From a virus (Duplodnaviria > Caudoviricetes): a DNA stretch of 27,612 nt. A program made the position numbers and the translations under genes. Every line of letters begins with the position of its first letter. Positions within the stretch are counted from its first letter, which is position 1. Below the pieces are notes generated by a model, which was not told the origin of the DNA, did no database searches, and saw only the letters and a program-made list of their open reading frames with translations. Shown one piece after another: positions 2-16,231 of this stretch. The stretch covers positions 1 to 27,612 of IMG/VR virus record IMGVR_UViG_3300005512_000265; one strand, written 5' to 3'.

Positions 2-1225
2 ATCATTAAGACACCTGCTTACAGAGATAAAGAAGCTAAAGGTTCCTACAGATTATATACAGCAGGATCACCTGAGGCTGGTCGAGGGACGACTCCCACA
101 ATAGCACACCTATCTGAGATTGCGTTCTGGCAGCATGATGAAAAGATCCTTGCAGGTTTATTCCAAGGTATCTCTCAAGCTGATGGTACTGAGGTAATCC
201 TTGAAAGTACTGCTAATGGTGCTCAGGGTGAGTTCTACAGATTGTGGAGAGGTGCTGTTGCTGGTGAGAATGAATACTTACCTATATTCCTCCCTTGGTA
301 TTGGACTAATGAATACCGTAGGAAAGCTCCTGAAGGTATGGAGTTAACTACAGAAGAAGATAATCTTAAAGAGAAGTTTGGTCTTGATGATGATCAACTG
401 TATTGGAGAAGGTTAAAGATTGCTGAGAGTGGGGAACTTAAGTTCAAACAAGAATACCCCTCAACAGCAGATGAAGCATTTGTTGTTTCAGGTTCTAATG
501 TATTTGATATTGATAAACTAGATAGTCTTATTCCAGAAGCACCTTTGTCTACACGGGTATGGGATACATACTCTAAGATGTTTGATGATGGTAAGGAAGG
601 TAAGTTACAACTTTGGAGTTACCCTAAGTTTGATAAACCTTATGTTATTGCTGCTGATGTAAGTTTAGGTGTTGGTCAGGATTACAGTACTGCTGTTGTC
701 TTAGATCAAGATTATAAAGTGATTGCATTGTACAGGGATAATAGAATTGATCCTAGCACCTATGGTGAATTATTATTTTACTTAGGTAGATATTTCAATA
801 ATGCATTCTTATGTGTTGAGTCTAACTCTATGGGTATTGCTACCCTACAGAAACTAGAGTCTATGAATTATGTCAACATGTATAAACAAACTAAGATTGC
901 TAATGTGTCTAATGAAGAGGGTGTGCGTCTAGGGTTTAGAACCACAGTCAGCACTAAGCCTGTCATCATTGGTAATCTAAAAAGATTAATTGCTGATGAG
1001 GCAATAAACATCCCATCAAATATTATGATACAAGAGTTAAAAGATTACATTTCTACAGATACAGGTAAAACAGAAGCATCCCCAGGAACACATGATGATA
1101 CAGTCATGGCGTTAGCTATGGGGTGTGAAGTATTACGGACCCACTACGATAAGCTTGTCTTAAACAGAATGTCTTGGAAAGATAGAGTTGGTGAGTGGGA
1201 ACAGGATAACACAGCATGGTTATAG
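2..1225 (+). CDS. terL: Terminase large subunit (5'-truncated by window edge)
   Basis: Frame is open from base 2 (IIKTPAYRDKEAKGSYRLYTAG...). Walker-B-like IAHLSE and coupling motif ESTANG lie upstream of the track's start at 242. C-terminal RNase H-like nuclease motifs IAADVSLGVGQDYS, VESNSMG, HDDTVMALAM. Precedes portal. Confidence 0.95.
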   Translation: MIKTPAYRDKEAKGSYRLYTAGSPEAGRGTTPTIAHLSEIAFWQHDEKILAGLFQGISQADGTEVILESTANGAQGEFYRLWRGAVAGENEYLPIFLPWYWTNEYRRKAPEGMELTTEEDNLKEKFGLDDDQLYWRRLKIAESGELKFKQEYPSTADEAFVVSGSNVFDIDKLDSLIPEAPLSTRVWDTYSKMFDDGKEGKLQLWSYPKFDKPYVIAADVSLGVGQDYSTAVVLDQDYKVIALYRDNRIDPSTYGELLFYLGRYFNNAFLCVESNSMGIATLQKLESMNYVNMYKQTKIANVSNEEGVRLGFRTTVSTKPVIIGNLKRLIADEAINIPSNIMIQELKDYISTDTGKTEASPGTHDDTVMALAMGCEVLRTHYDKLVLNRMSWKDRVGEWEQDNTAWL

Positions 1226-1234
1226 TGATATAAT
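1206..1234 (+). promoter_or_regulatory. Sigma70-type extended -10 promoter
   Basis: TG-A-TATAAT at 1226-1234 is a perfect TGnTATAAT directly after the terL stop. ATAACA (4/6 match to TTGACA) at 1206-1211 with 17-bp spacing. Predicted start ~1241. Confidence 0.6.
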
Positions 1235-1240
1235 AATGCT

Positions 1241-1424
1241 ACCAATCTTCCGTTTGTCCTCAACTAGTCTGGTATAGCTAGTGGAAGAAACTATACCACT
1301 TTACTTTAGGTCTTATAAGAGTGTCTTGACGTACCAGCCTTAAAATTGTTATGTCTAGACAGATACGTTAGTATTAAACATTACGTATTCCTGCTGCCAT
1401 ATCAAGGCACTCTTATAGGACTTA
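1241..1424 (+). ncRNA. Candidate structured ncRNA / 5' leader (pseudoknot-capable module plus long stem)
   Basis: Pairings read by hand: 1246-1251/1283-1288, 1263-1267/1278-1282, 1270-1277/1291-1298, and a 23-bp stem 1307-1329/1402-1424 with three G-U pairs. Family not recognised. Confidence 0.5.
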
Positions 1425-1452
1425 CATATAGATAGATAGATAGGAAGATAGA

Positions 1453-1590
1453 ATGTCTCGATTTATACAACCACAGCCTGAGAAAAAGGCTAAGAAAGAA
1501 AAGCCAAGGGAGATGCCCAAGGTAGGAAATTATTCCTCAGAAGATCTTCGTAATGGGAGTAAGATCCCAACGAAAGGGGGTTATCAATAG
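1453..1590 (+). CDS. Small basic hypothetical protein (45 aa), not in ORF track
   Basis: MSRFIQPQPEKKAKKEKPREMPKVGNYSSEDLRNGSKIPTKGGYQ*. AGGA upstream. Stop overlaps the portal GTG (TAGTG), indicating translational coupling. Confidence 0.7.
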   Translation: MSRFIQPQPEKKAKKEKPREMPKVGNYSSEDLRNGSKIPTKGGYQ

Positions 1591-3731
1591 TGGCTAAATA
1601 TTATGGTTATAAAGAAAAAGTAACAGATGAGCAGCTAATTAATTTAGTTGAATCTGGTGTACAGAACTCTGTAGGAGATTGGTTAAACTCCTCTGATCTA
1701 GCGTATGAGCGTATCCGTAGTACTTACGAATATGCAGGAGTACCTGTAGGTCATCTCGCCCCACAAGGTGTATCCAGTATTGTTGATACATCAACTACAG
1801 AAACAGTAGAAGCTTTTTCAGCGATTCTATCTGATCTCTTCTTAAACAACCAACGGTTAGCCCGTTTTGTCCCATACAATGATTCTCCCGGAGCATATAA
1901 GAGTGCTAAGGATGCATCACTACTTGTTAACTATTGTCTATTCAAACAGAACAATGGGTGGGAGATTCTAGAGTCATGGATGAAATGTGCATTACTCTGG
2001 AAGAATGGGATTATCCGTTGGGACTATGTAGAAGATTATGAGTATATCTTTGAAGAGTATGAAAAGATTACTCAACCCCGTCTTGATGAAATCTTATCAG
2101 AAGATGATGTAGAGATTGTAGGTGATCTCCAATTTGAGAATGATATTGATACTCAAGGGGAGTCTGAATTAGTTTATGTAGATGTACGTCTACGTAGAAA
2201 AATAAATAAATCTAAAGTTAAGCTAGAACTTATCCCACCAGAATCTTTCCGTATTTCTAGGGAAGCATCAAGTATTGAGAATTCTGAGTTTGTTGGATTA
2301 CAATCAACATACACTCGTTCAGAGATGCGTAAGATGTGGCCTGAAATGTCAGAGTCTTTATCTGAAGATGATTGGAATGCATTAGGTTCTGAGAATTGGA
2401 ATGGGACTAGTCGTTACTCTGAAGACATTGCTGCAAGGAAACTTGTCACAGGGCAAGAATACTGGCAAGGGTCTACGAATATTGATCTGACACCCCTAGA
2501 AGCAAATAGGGAAGTAACAGTTACTGAGTGTTGGTTACATGTTGATCGTGATGGGGATGGTATTGCTGAACTAAAACGATTCATTATTGCAGGTACTCAT
2601 GTCCTTCTTGAAGAAGATGTAGATATGATCCCTCTAGCATCTTTGTCTCCAATTAACATTCCATTTGAATTTTATGGTTTGTCTATTGCTGACTTTACTC
2701 GTTCGTCTACGTTAGCATCCACAGCTATCCTTCGTGGGTTTGTTGAGAATACATATCTAACAAACTACTCACCTAAGCTAGCTGATCCTAATGTTGTAGA
2801 CTTCAGTGCATTACAAAATATGAAACCTAAGCAGATCATTCCTACGAATGGTAACCCTGCTGGTGCTGTATCTGCAATGGTTCCTGAGACTATGAGTACT
2901 AGTACTGTACCTCTCTTAGAACATCTACAGATGATCAAGGAACAGGCTACAGGTATGTCTAAGGCTGCTCAAGGTCTTAACGATACTCTGTACGTATCAG
3001 GTAACTCTGAACAAAAATTAGCAGCAGTACAATCCGCATCCCAGAAACGTATTCAACAGATTGCTAGACGGTTTGCTGAGACAGGGTTTAAACGTCTTTG
3101 TCTTGGTGTCTACCACACAATGCGTAGGTGCATGAATGAAAAGATTTCTTGTAAGATTGCCCATTCATTCTCTGATATCAACCCATCAGATCTCCCACGT
3201 AATCTAGAGTGTGAGATCTTTGTAGATATCGGTGAGAACTCTAATCTCAACAAGATTCAAAAACTCAAATCATTAGGTCAAGAAATACTACCTGCGTTGA
3301 AAGCTCAAGGTATAGGTATGATGGTCAGACCTGAGGCTCCTGCATCTCTAGCTACTCAGTTAGTTGAAGCAATGGGTATGGATTCAAATGATTTCTTTGT
3401 GGATTACACAGAGGATGAGTTTAAAGAGAAAGCTGCTCAAGAGATTCAGAAACAGAATCAACAAGCACAACAAGCTAAGGAAATGGAGTTAGCTAAAGCA
3501 CAAGCTGATATAGGATTACAACAAGCAAATGTGTCTTACACACAAGCACAAGCTCGTAACACAATGGATGATAATGCTCGTCAGATGGCTGTAGCTATTG
3601 ATAAACATTTCCAAGAGTGGGCAGATCTAAACATCAAATCTGTCAAAGAGGGTGCTCAATTAGATGAACATCCCCAATTTGAAACTATCCTAGAAATGGT
3701 TAAAAACATTATGGGTACACAAGGACAATAA
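1590..3731 (+). CDS. Portal protein (P22/SU10-like podovirus type)
   Basis: 713 aa after terminase. Motifs KCALLWKNGIIRW, ELIPPESFRI, ECWLHVDRDGDGIAE, PFEFYGLSIAD, IARRFAETG, and a Q/A-rich coiled-coil C-terminal barrel. Confidence 0.9.
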   Translation: MAKYYGYKEKVTDEQLINLVESGVQNSVGDWLNSSDLAYERIRSTYEYAGVPVGHLAPQGVSSIVDTSTTETVEAFSAILSDLFLNNQRLARFVPYNDSPGAYKSAKDASLLVNYCLFKQNNGWEILESWMKCALLWKNGIIRWDYVEDYEYIFEEYEKITQPRLDEILSEDDVEIVGDLQFENDIDTQGESELVYVDVRLRRKINKSKVKLELIPPESFRISREASSIENSEFVGLQSTYTRSEMRKMWPEMSESLSEDDWNALGSENWNGTSRYSEDIAARKLVTGQEYWQGSTNIDLTPLEANREVTVTECWLHVDRDGDGIAELKRFIIAGTHVLLEEDVDMIPLASLSPINIPFEFYGLSIADFTRSSTLASTAILRGFVENTYLTNYSPKLADPNVVDFSALQNMKPKQIIPTNGNPAGAVSAMVPETMSTSTVPLLEHLQMIKEQATGMSKAAQGLNDTLYVSGNSEQKLAAVQSASQKRIQQIARRFAETGFKRLCLGVYHTMRRCMNEKISCKIAHSFSDINPSDLPRNLECEIFVDIGENSNLNKIQKLKSLGQEILPALKAQGIGMMVRPEAPASLATQLVEAMGMDSNDFFVDYTEDEFKEKAAQEIQKQNQQAQQAKEMELAKAQADIGLQQANVSYTQAQARNTMDDNARQMAVAIDKHFQEWADLNIKSVKEGAQLDEHPQFETILEMVKNIMGTQGQ

Positions 3732-6521: not shown

Positions 6522-6530
6522 GACTGCATA

Positions 6531-6567
6531 AGGAAGGGGGAAATTTGTCCCCCTTTCTTTTTATTTT
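6531..6567 (+). terminator. Rho-independent terminator after capsid gene
   Basis: Stem AGGAAGGGGGA (6531-6541) / TCCCCCTTTCT (6548-6558), 6-nt loop, then a T-rich tract. Confidence 0.85.
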
Positions 6568-6590
6568 AAATTATTTGGGAGTAATAATTT

Positions 6591-6799: not shown

Positions 6800-7132
6800 A
6801 TGGCTAAGTGGAAAGTAGGGGATAAGACGAATCCCGGATCACTTCAAGGTACATTTGAGTATGAAGCAGGTTCTGCTACAGGTGAGTCTGTATGGACTGT
6901 TCAGCAAGATGAAAAGCCTTTTATTGAACAAGCTAAATTAGATAGGGAAGCAGGTGCTAAAAAAGGTGCAGGCTATAAAAAGTTTGCTACGATTCCAGAC
7001 ATTGTAGCCATTGATATCCTTAATAAATACGGTATTGATATTCACGATCCTGATACAATGAGAGATCAAACTAAAATGAATAAATTTAAACAAATTATTA
7101 AAAGTGAATATAAATATCTTTTATCATATTAG
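6800..7132 (+). CDS. Hypothetical protein (110 aa)
   Basis: AAGGA RBS. KKFATIPDIVAI...IIKSEYKYL resembles small proteins found between capsid and adaptor in podoviruses. Confidence 0.7.
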   Translation: MAKWKVGDKTNPGSLQGTFEYEAGSATGESVWTVQQDEKPFIEQAKLDREAGAKKGAGYKKFATIPDIVAIDILNKYGIDIHDPDTMRDQTKMNKFKQIIKSEYKYLLSY

Positions 7133-7143
7133 GAGACTAAAAC

Positions 7144-7905
7144 ATGGCAACTCCACTATTTGATGCATTAGTAGTTAAGGTTCGCAATTGGGCAAACCGA
7201 GATAGTGATGTTTTAAGTGATAGCCTAATAACTGATTTTTTAGATTATTCAGCAGACTACTGTTATCATAAGTTAAGAATTCCACCTTTAGAATATACTT
7301 ATCAATATCCTATTATTGATAGTTTAACAGAAGATGAAACTTCTTTAGTAGTGCCTCCAGATTTCTCAGAGTTAATTTCTTTTTCTGTAGTTGATTCTAA
7401 TAACGACAGATATGTTTTTAACAAATCTTTACCTCAAGCTGAATTTAATAATTCATTTGTAATTAAACCAAATTATTCATTTTCGTTTAAAGGTAATGAA
7501 ATACAATTTTATCCAAAAGCTGAAGTTGGTAATATTTATGAATTACATTATTATCGACGTTTACCTGATTTAGATGCAACTTATGTTGTTAATCAAACAA
7601 ATATTACATTAGGTAACTGTACTGTAGCTTCTGCGGAAGATGAAGGGGCAGTAGAATTTCCTGAAAGTTCTGGCACTTATTATACTGGAAATGAAGTATA
7701 TAACTGGCTAAGAGATGAGAATGAAAGAGTTCTCCTTTGGGGAGCATTTGCTCATGCTTTAGATTATTTAGGCGAAGATGAACGAGCTATGAAGTTTTTT
7801 CAAAAACAAGAATTTGCAGTTCAAGAACTTAATGGTGAAGATAAATTAAGAAAAGCAAAAGGTGCTAGTAATACAGTAACTTTTGAAGTTTCACAGTTAT
7901 TATAA
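7144..7905 (+). CDS. Head-tail adaptor protein
   Basis: VRNWANRDSD, LRIPPLE, FYP, ELHYYRRLPDL, NWLRDENERVLLWGA motifs. Position matches the SU10-type adaptor. Confidence 0.75.
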   Translation: MATPLFDALVVKVRNWANRDSDVLSDSLITDFLDYSADYCYHKLRIPPLEYTYQYPIIDSLTEDETSLVVPPDFSELISFSVVDSNNDRYVFNKSLPQAEFNNSFVIKPNYSFSFKGNEIQFYPKAEVGNIYELHYYRRLPDLDATYVVNQTNITLGNCTVASAEDEGAVEFPESSGTYYTGNEVYNWLRDENERVLLWGAFAHALDYLGEDERAMKFFQKQEFAVQELNGEDKLRKAKGASNTVTFEVSQLL

Positions 7906-14999: not shown

Positions 15000-15329
15000 A
15001 TGGCAACAACTTATAAAGTTCTTGGACAATCGGCTCCAAGCGCAACAACAGCAACCGATGTATACACTGTACCTGTTTCAACTGAGGCAGTAGTATCAAC
15101 AATCTTTATATGTAATCGTGGTTCTACAGCAGCTACATACCGCATTTCAGTACGACCTAACGGTGCGACACAGGCAGATCAACACTATTTAGCATACGAT
15201 GCTGTAATTCTTGGTAATGATTCTGTAGCGATTACAGTTGGTACGACAATGGATGCAGCAGACGTTATTACTGTGTACGCAAGCACAGCTAACCTCTCGT
15301 TTAATGTATTCGGATCGGAGCTTAGTTAA
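15000..15329 (+). CDS. Small beta-sandwich virion protein (109 aa)
   Basis: MATTYKVLGQSAP...ICNRG...LSFNVFGSELS. AGGAG RBS. TAATG coupling to the next gene. Confidence 0.75.
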   Translation: MATTYKVLGQSAPSATTATDVYTVPVSTEAVVSTIFICNRGSTAATYRISVRPNGATQADQHYLAYDAVILGNDSVAITVGTTMDAADVITVYASTANLSFNVFGSELS

Positions 15330-16231
15330 TGTCTATATCACGACTTGTACCTGATCTTTACTTAGAGTCAGGTGTTTCTACAATGCCTATGGCTTCTGGT
15401 GGAACTGAGGTTACATCAGGTGGATACAAGTACCACACGTTTACTAGCACAGCTGACTTCATTGTAACTAGAGCAGGCTTGTTTGAAATCCTTGCTGTTG
15501 GCGCAGGCGGAGCAGGTGGTTCAAACCTAAGCTCTGGCCGTGGTGGAGGTGGGGGTGCAGGGCAAGCACTTAATGAAACAATTTATTTAAGCGCAGGCAC
15601 TCACACAGTAACGATTGGTGCAGGTGGTGTTCACGATGTTTCAACAAACAGTGATAGCCCTTTTGGAAACAACACCACTATTGGAACCTTAGTTTCACTA
15701 GGTGGTGGAGCAGGACAAAACCGTCCGGGTGCTACATCACTTGCAGGTAGAGCAGGCGCAGGAGCTTGTGGTGGAGGCGGTGCTACATCAGCCGCATATG
15801 AAACCTACGGCGGCTATGGGTTCTTTGGCTACAACGGTGGAGAAGGCGTAGCAGGTAACGCTGAATACTCTGCCGGAGGCGGCGGAGGCGGAATGGGTTC
15901 CGCAGGTGCTAATGGACAGTCAGAAGGTAGCCGTATTGGTGGTGATGGTGGAGATGGTATTTCCACTTATGACACTTGGTTATCAGCTACATCTACAGGC
16001 GTTGATGAGTCAGGTACACGTTACATTTGTGGCGGAGGTGGTGGTGCAGGCCATGTCCAAGCCGGAGATGGTGGCTTAGGCGGAGGTGGTGACGGTACTA
16101 ATGATTCAGGGACTCCAACCGCAGGGACTGCCAACACTGGATCAGGCGGCGGTGGAGCAGGTTCTACCTCAACATCAAACGCAGGCGCAAGTGGCGGTTC
16201 CGGTTTAGTAATAATAAGGTACGCAGTATGA
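15329..16231 (+). CDS. Glycine-rich domain tail protein 1
   Basis: GGT...YKYHTFT...ILAVGAGGAGG...ANTGSGGGG...GGSGLVIIRY architecture. Confidence 0.85.
   Translation: MSISRLVPDLYLESGVSTMPMASGGTEVTSGGYKYHTFTSTADFIVTRAGLFEILAVGAGGAGGSNLSSGRGGGGGAGQALNETIYLSAGTHTVTIGAGGVHDVSTNSDSPFGNNTTIGTLVSLGGGAGQNRPGATSLAGRAGAGACGGGGATSAAYETYGGYGFFGYNGGEGVAGNAEYSAGGGGGGMGSAGANGQSEGSRIGGDGGDGISTYDTWLSATSTGVDESGTRYICGGGGGAGHVQAGDGGLGGGGDGTNDSGTPTAGTANTGSGGGGAGSTSTSNAGASGGSGLVIIRYAV

Follow-up and report, generated by a model that had tools for sequence, protein, structure and literature searches.

The described RNAs that come closest to the element reported here are the xrRNAs, which a review of the group lists only from eukaryotic RNA viruses. 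The dianthovirus xrRNA is 43–44 nt long; its stem P1 is a helpful but dispensable folding intermediate, and it is the pseudoknot state that blocks the nuclease (10.1101/262683). The ring formed by xrRNAs measures 15–16 nt (PMC8374639), and a flavivirus xrRNA blocks the bacterial RNase J1 in vitro (PMC5760640). Among phage RNAs, the nearest are the pseudoknot in the leader of T4 gene 32, together with the GP32-associated candidates of Fremin et al. (PMC10690425), and the HDV-like theta ribozymes of gut phages (PMC10879173).

The element lies between the terminase and portal genes of the window, by which we mean the whole 27,612-nt stretch of DNA analysed. With the dianthovirus and luteovirus xrRNAs (SCNMV; 10.1101/262683, PMC8374639) it shares a length of about 45–50 nt and the succession of P1, an internal loop, P2 and a loop paired with the 3′ tail, as well as a weak and dispensable P1, a predicted closed loop near 15 nt and, in many members, a position after a stop codon. 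In the SCNMV-type xrRNA, however, L2 is bipartite and its L2B hairpin makes contact with L1, whereas the phage element lacks L2B, has a pseudoknot helix of 5–9 bp rather than 3–4 bp, has a one-sided internal loop with a conserved GUCCUC on its 5′ side and belongs to a DNA phage of bacteria; the likeness is drawn from sequence. The class 1 xrRNA of flaviviruses (PMC8374639, PMC5760640) also combines a P1 with a hairpin that pairs, through its loop, with the segment immediately 3′ of P1, and its ring of 15–16 nt compares with a predicted closed loop of 12–18 nt in the phage element. The flavivirus RNA blocks RNase J1 in vitro. Where it has a three-way junction with a P2 helix the phage element has a bulge of 9–12 nt with no covarying helix, and neither a conserved pairing of the 5′ end nor a base triple was seen in the phage element, the bases 5′ of stem A not being conserved. 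Like the gene 32 pseudoknot it is a small intergenic pseudoknot in phage mRNA, but the gene downstream of it varies, as does its distance from the start codon, and it has an additional stem A and an invariant bulge. Like the theta ribozymes it is small, pseudoknotted, phage-encoded and intergenic and has a UCCUC-like run, yet it forms one pseudoknot and not a nested double one and offers no P3 or J4/2 position; no tRNA, or tmRNA, was found in the window.

A structured RNA family between terL and portal

The window covers the late region of a marine podophage, with the head and tail genes on the same strand as terL (Table 1). The only close cultured relative of this phage is Roseobacter phage CRP-7, in which the late genes occupy about 40 kb on one strand. 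CRP-7 is a 58-kb podovirus that infects RCA roseobacters and encodes a T7-like RNA polymerase (PMC6918029), an enzyme that 16 of 25 related records, among them five of the six near-complete ones, were found to encode.

Table 1. Features of the window around the pseudoknot element, numbered from the first nucleotide of the window
Feature	Position	Strand	Evidence and remarks
terL (terminase large subunit), 3′ part; gene runs off the 5′ end of the window	2–1225	+	PHROG 2, E 1.6e-23; 60% identity to CRP-7 TerL
Extended −10-like TGnTATAAT, TGATATAAT	1226–1234	+	Scan; probably incidental
Stem A (P1)	5′ strand 1246–1251; partner 1283–1288	+	4–8 bp in 49/49 distinct cores (descriptor requires stem A); covaries; missing in variant L117
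Bulge with invariant core GUCCUC (1256–1261), then mostly A	1252–1262	+	9–12 nt across cores
Stem B (P2), 1263–1267/1278–1282; pyrimidine loop L1, 1268–1269; stem C 5′ strand, 1270–1277	1263–1282	+	
Stem A 3′ strand and A-rich linker, forming pseudoknot loop 3	1283–1290	+	6–11 nt; 86% purine; last base A in 41/49
Stem C 3′ strand	1291–1298	+	52/55 model hits form at least 6 bp
Second hairpin: 23-bp stem, 5 × 5 internal loop CGUAC (1330–1334)/CMAUA (1397–1401), 4-bp stem, variable top	1307–1424	+	z −6.46
GAUA repeats, then ribosome-binding site GGAAGA of the small ORF	1427–1448	+	Can pair with 1244–1257 in the window clade
Basic 45-aa ORF directly 5′ of portal, function not assigned	1453–1590	+	ORF call; similar ORFs in many relatives
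Portal gene, first of the head genes	1590–3731	+	PHROG 1216, E 4e-89; 56% identity to CRP-7 portal
Scaffold gene	4284	+	Late gene, downstream of portal
Major head gene	5409	+	Late gene, downstream of portal

Stems A, B and C lie exactly at the coordinates proposed in the initial annotation, which had read B+C as an H-type pseudoknot and A+B as an alternative bulged hairpin, and both structures are borne out by the relatives. The strands follow each other in the order A-B-C-B′-A′-C′; in the window the pseudoknot loops are of 2, 0 and 8 nt, and B and C together make 13 coaxial bp. Taken by itself in the window, the nested hairpin A+B is unremarkable relative to shuffles (z −0.82). The three-stem pattern has a descriptor score of 38, which 0 of 1000 shuffles reached (maximum 30) when window positions 1226–1330 were shuffled with GTCCTCA held fixed. 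In a plain MAFFT alignment of 53 sequences all three stems covary, with double changes at 18 of 18 pairs, and 74.3% of the cells are paired against 57.0% in shuffles (0/500) and 41–52% in slid controls; this alignment was not fitted to the structure, and kinship among the sequences can inflate the double-change counts. For that reason an independent test of stem C was added with model R1, which was built without the pseudoknot pairs: of its 55 distinct hits, 52 have a stem C of at least 6 bp, a length that only 19.9% of swapped tails attain. Thus, the hairpin A+B and the pseudoknot B+C are both made of covarying pairs, and the element is a real, conserved family of structured phage RNA.

Across 49 distinct cores, which are 45–54 nt long, stem A has 4–8 bp, the bulge 9–12 nt, stem B 3–6 bp and stem C 5–9 bp, so that B+C amounts to 9–14 coaxial bp; the loop of B is of 7–11 nt, of which 5–9 nt are paired in C. 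L1 has 0–3 nt (77 of its 85 bases are pyrimidines), L2 has 0 nt in 48 of the 49 cores, and the purine-rich loop 3 has 6–11 nt. The stems themselves are interchangeable in sequence, as illustrated by stem B, for which there are 31 distinct 5′ strands among the 49 cores and for which 11–14% of strand swaps preserve the stem. Internal wobble pairs are biased towards the plus strand, with 24 G-U against 5 A-C under the mirrored model. The only invariant bases are those of GUCCUC in the bulge, a feature that the first reading had missed along with the second structured element (Table 1): the six columns are unchanged in all 53 aligned sequences, for whose selection GUCCUC served as the anchor, and are invariant again in the model-search alignments, where the anchor was not required. 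In the 53-sequence alignment and the 49 cores, neither the stems B and C nor the loops yielded an invariant base, and the core showed no tertiary partner that is invariant. Two departures from this plan are seen among the relatives: the CRP-7 clade has a longer bulge and C-to-U variants of GUCCUC, and in variant L117 GUCCUC stands directly 5′ of B+C, with a four-A loop and stem A absent. The closed loop, counted as the 3′ strands of B and A plus the linker plus 2, has a mode of 15 nt (22/49), is of 15–16 nt in 29 of 49 cores and ranges from 12 to 18 nt. The lengths of A and B add up to 10–11 bp in 35 of 49 cores and are anticorrelated (rho −0.53, a figure that includes kinship).

The proposal that these pairings form a balanced two-state switch fares less well. 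Adding stem A to hairpin B brings a median gain of 2.0 kcal/mol after the bulge penalty, as compared with about 13 kcal/mol of stacking for stem C, before loop costs. Because stem A adds so little, and because one lineage (L117) lacks it, a balanced switch is unlikely; moreover, no family-wide expression platform was found. Covariation reads the same whether A and C coexist or exclude each other. If they do exclude each other, B+C should win once it has been transcribed, in which case A would be an early folding intermediate or a latch, and a sequential path from A+B to B+C is plausible.

Distribution, genomic position and novelty

Relatives were gathered by searches with the portal and terminase and scored with a pairing descriptor anchored on the bulge. 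With a strict descriptor the element is found downstream of terL in 125 of 171 loci with more than 900 nt of downstream DNA, and most of the 46 misses are variants or cases in which the element lies beyond the fetched flank. When the 168 loci that hold the full terL-portal interval, all from CRP-7-like marine podophages, were collapsed to 101 distinct TerL sequences, a looser descriptor detected the element in 92 of these lineages. Eight of the nine lineages without it form one clade, nested in a group that otherwise carries the element, and in the two records of this clade that were inspected the genes abut; the ninth, L198, has a different hairpin at the same place. A search of three complete genomes of the negative clade with model R1 gave no match. 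Since R1 misses the CRP-7 and L117 variants, such a search is by itself no proof of absence, and the loss in this clade rests on the descriptor and the model together. The existence of this clade implies that the element is dispensable.

Records searched whole hold at most one strong copy, and the element was found only inside the terL-portal interval. Blind pattern scans point to a restriction of the element to the CRP-7-like family: among the matches listed for viral contigs 8 of 120 scored at least 30, all eight beside terL or portal, and among those listed for metagenomes 6 of 118 did so, five with terL hits and the sixth on a short contig where, by eye, it follows the end of the family's post-terL gene. 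An early idea, that the element is tied to the 3′ end of terL, was overturned by accessory genes inserted between the two; such genes lie 5′ of the element in some clades and 3′ of it in others. It follows the stop codons of several genes: terL, a gene of about 147 aa, gp60 of CRP-7 and an unrelated gene of 184 aa. From the stop codon to the core there are 8–15 nt in 50 of the 81 contexts, and as many as 239 nt in others; many members start 0–5 nt after the stop codon. The next start codon, 5–302 nt downstream, belongs to several unrelated genes. Two assembled RNA contigs (X1 and X4) cover the element; they come from eight of 16 listed RNA runs, and the runs contained 5–15% of the sequence words. 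Two MAG contigs carry it as well; they could be phage sequence binned in error and identify no host, and CRP-7 is the only carrier whose host is known. One of these MAGs has an RNase J hit, which is not counted as evidence.

The initial annotation did not recognise the family, and neither does Rfam 15, which gives 0 hits in the window at the gathering score; at E values up to 10 there are only sub-threshold hairpin hits, outside the pseudoknot, and over the element in nine other loci there is no match. Comparison of the interval with cultured phages by blastn returned only short chance matches in the small ORF. No description of such an element was found in the literature, in a coverage made up mostly of papers open without subscription. 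The motif was not found in supplement files 3–6 of PMC10690425, whose alignment archives could hold it, and the accessible text of the Minerva preprint and of PMC12629253 does not mention the element. Thus, the RNA family is apparently undescribed as well as absent from Rfam. As the group is a widespread marine one, with a cultured member in CRP-7 and natural variants by the dozen, which include L117, lacking stem A, and the clade from which the element is absent, the RNA is directly testable with 50-nt transcripts.

What the element may do in the late mRNA

We tentatively favour, as a possibility that falls well short of being established, an account in which the element is a barrier to 5′-end-dependent RNA decay, such that the portal-scaffold-capsid part of the message would outlast the terminase part. 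The T7-like polymerase of the phage would transcribe through the element within a long late mRNA; hairpin A+B would form first during transcription and would then yield to, or be latched by, the stronger B+C; and, after a cut upstream, the pseudoknot would halt either RNase J or the scanning of RNase E, GUCCUC lying at the newly made 5′ end or being occupied by a factor. The element would then be a functional counterpart of the plant-virus xrRNAs, though not one of their family. Consistent with this account are the covarying stems, the plus-strand G-U bias and the constant position between terL and portal, after the stops of unrelated genes. The order of the strands (P1, internal loop, P2, loop plus 3′ tail) is that of the dianthovirus xrRNA, in the phage element too A is weak and can be missing (L117), and the modal closed loop of 15 nt compares with the xrRNA ring of 15–16 nt, although a loop of about this size may simply follow from one helical turn, given how constant the summed length of A and B is. 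H-type pseudoknots of 8–15 coaxial bp impede RNase E scanning in E. coli in a manner graded by size (PMC9943677), and B+C falls within this range. However, a pseudoknot of 11 bp is only a modest obstacle to RNase E, and the composition of the obstacle matters little (PMC9943677); a purely mechanical block leaves the six invariant bases unexplained. Rhodobacter has both RNase E and RNase J, but RNase J processes few transcripts of R. sphaeroides (PMC8625941). The clade of eight lineages, moreover, does without the element. A more specific version, that the element is a true phage xrRNA, seems unlikely: here a convergent, ring-forming pseudoknot would pass from A+B to B+C as a 5′-3′ nuclease of the host eats into stem A, with GUCCUC threaded through the ring, and would leave a stable 5′ end on the head-gene mRNA. 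If the decay barrier is real, it would provide a phage example showing that structure-based blocks to 5′ decay also evolved in viruses that infect bacteria, would explain how one long late transcript gives little terminase and much head protein, and would offer a compact mRNA stabiliser for use in bacteria.

The invariant loop argues for a partner that reads sequence, and for this reason a protein-binding operator has to be weighed against the decay barrier. In such an operator, which we consider somewhat doubtful, the pseudoknot would display GUCCUC to a phage or host protein (a terminase subunit, the portal or the product of the small basic ORF) and tune translation or the output of the packaging genes, much like the leader pseudoknot of T4 gene 32. 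Stems that can be freely exchanged but carry unchanging single-stranded bases are the expected mark of a partner that reads sequence, the second hairpin likewise has an invariant internal loop, the basic 45-aa ORF follows in many lineages, and T4 gp32 binds a pseudoknot upstream (PMC10690425). Against this stands the variety of the surroundings: the next start is at no set distance and opens unrelated genes, the upstream gene varies too, and apart from the terL-portal frame there is no constant neighbour.

The same loop could be the catalytic strand of a small self-cleaving ribozyme of a new class, by which the late mRNA would be split into its terminase and head parts. We regard this as improbable, even though the size, the pseudoknot, the invariant bases and the intergenic position are like those of small ribozymes and UCCUC(A/G) resembles the L3 loop of HDV. 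Phages do carry minimal HDV-like ribozymes (PMC10879173). The conserved bases, however, lie on one strand only, and the strand order is not that of a nested double pseudoknot. There is no hammerhead core and no Rfam ribozyme hit, and no HDV-type P1/P3/L3 match overlaps the element; the descriptor for the latter was our own, and its sole partial match lies outside the element. Were the element a ribozyme or a protein operator, it would still be a new class built around a six-base invariant loop.

GUCCUC also resembles an anti-Shine-Dalgarno sequence, and in a translational switch, an idea close to that of the initial annotation and attractive in the window clade, C would displace A, and the freed 5′ strand with GUCCUC would pair with the next ribosome-binding site and turn the gene off, possibly triggered by a ribosome ending at the upstream stop. 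In the window, positions 1244–1257 do pair with 1435–1449 in the MFE fold (−15.3 kcal/mol, the best of 31 start regions in the window), but an unrelated gene of the window scores −14.8. In the L007/L015 clade the two partners have changed in a matching way, all common bulge variants could still pair with G or U by wobble, the stop-to-core distance lies mostly in a narrow range, and a permutation across 24 lineage clusters gives p 0.019. Against these, neither of the paired Wilcoxon tests that used swapped partners as the control reached significance (p 0.11 and 0.26), in many lineages the own site is no better a partner than the sites of others (4 of the 76 pairs were left out because their start calls were doubtful), and the stop can be as distant as noted above. 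No conserved pairing partner of GUCCUC was found in terL or portal codons, the best site being present in 31 of 158 (20%). Because the pairing signal across the 24 clusters is marginal, we hold such a switch to be as improbable as self-cleavage.

A transcription signal or 3′-end cap, that is, a pause, termination or antitermination site for the phage or host polymerase, or a structure protecting the 3′ end of the terminase transcript, is quite improbable. RNA antiterminators do exist within long operons (put, EAR), the element sits just after stop codons, and the phages bring a polymerase of their own (in 16 of 25 records). Yet a U-tract follows only 21 of 49 cores, no terminator was called at this place, and a polymerase-bearing member of the negative clade (G003) lacks the element. 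A free, trans-acting small RNA, be it a seed-presenting regulator, a decoy for host defence or a packaging-motor RNA that multimerises through stem C, is very improbable: the fold is self-contained, exposes an invariant sequence and in one clade is joined to a long hairpin, but it has no conserved promoter or terminator of its own, is present in single copy and finds no complement of GUCCUCA in the window.

Several other readings were rejected. The element had been described as promoter-proximal, on account of a perfect TGnTATAAT. The sequence does match, but at one site only, where 3.2 are expected in shuffles, and the match is not conserved: TG with a −10 occurs in 1 of 69 distinct upstream regions (a 5/6 −10 hexamer in 15 of 69), the nearest relatives have TA instead of TG, and so does a relative whose TerL is 100% identical. 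With members that start within 5 nt of a stop codon and a T7-like polymerase in the family, a leader next to a sigma-70 promoter was set aside, and the match is probably incidental. The same count of U-tracts, in an AT-rich background, disposes of an intrinsic terminator. Pseudoknots for stop readthrough or frameshifting have a fixed short spacing from the stop and an open frame beyond it; here the spacing is 8–239 nt and, in the window, the TAG of terL is immediately followed by TGA. In riboswitches with an H-type pseudoknot aptamer, the bases that line the ligand pocket in the core are conserved and an expression platform adjoins a single gene family; here B, C and the loops lack invariant bases, the downstream genes are unrelated and the platform is weak.

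The second hairpin, the repeats and neighbouring genes

Downstream of the pseudoknot, the long hairpin of Table 1 is a second RNA without earlier description, accessory to the pseudoknot. It is found in 33 of 101 lineages, which form one clade and all carry the pseudoknot as well. In 23 sequences, chosen for having both stems, 91.8% of the cells are paired, 17 of 18 pairs show double changes and 0 of 500 shuffles does as well; the CGUAC/CMAUA internal loop is invariant, and the top of the hairpin is freely variable. Further copies are found, for example, at L047:2256-2328, L097:2156-2227 and L141:3129-3201, and the clade with the hairpin is the one whose terL-portal interval does not contain the gene of about 147 aa. 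In L007 (1111–1180) and L014 (after 2252) the place of this hairpin is taken by another long one, of about 17 bp and with a large top, and the close relatives L008 and L015 have none there. Short extra hairpins are seen between the pseudoknot and the long hairpin in L001 (after 1878), L004 (after 2188), L030 (after 1758) and L086 (after 3212).

In 66 of 101 lineages, tandem GAUA/GAUU/GUUA repeats (1427–1443 in the window) precede the ribosome-binding site of whichever gene comes next, the small ORF or portal. Neither of two simple explanations holds for them. As a repeated late promoter, GATWGATAG has exact copies in the window only at 1431–1443 and 0–5 scattered copies per genome, on both strands; and as stops in all three frames the repeats fail in L024 and L112, though they often do provide stops in several frames.

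The small ORF that follows gave no match in PHROG and Pfam searches; in relatives it encodes 45–60 aa, is rich in Lys, starts with MSRF... or MRYNE... and has a PK.G.Y..DL core. The gene of about 147 aa follows terL in 56 of 101 lineages (e.g., L007:612-1052 and L081:3241-3705) and is relocated far away in the complete genomes of the window clade (G001:C1 ~15035-15415; G002:C1 ~6846-7166). It has no PHROG or Pfam match, and none of its Atlas neighbours has a name, the KGG and DUF5681 leads among them being weak; that it is a small terminase-like gene is a guess. In L073, a gene inserted 3′ of the pseudoknot in the terL-portal slot reads by eye like a periplasmic binding lipoprotein of an ABC transporter. 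A terminator-like hairpin with a U-tract lies at 6522–6590 of the window, 3′ of the major head gene, and similar ones are seen in G002, G003, G008 and G011. In the CRP-7 record (L347, 35552–38170) ribonucleotide reductase is annotated as two pieces that flank a hypothetical gene, with structured spacers that look like a self-splicing intron. Lastly, L420 (G002:C1 ~59400-60000) has tandem repeats of about 20 nt that contain GCTCC, in a gene-free stretch near the end of the record.
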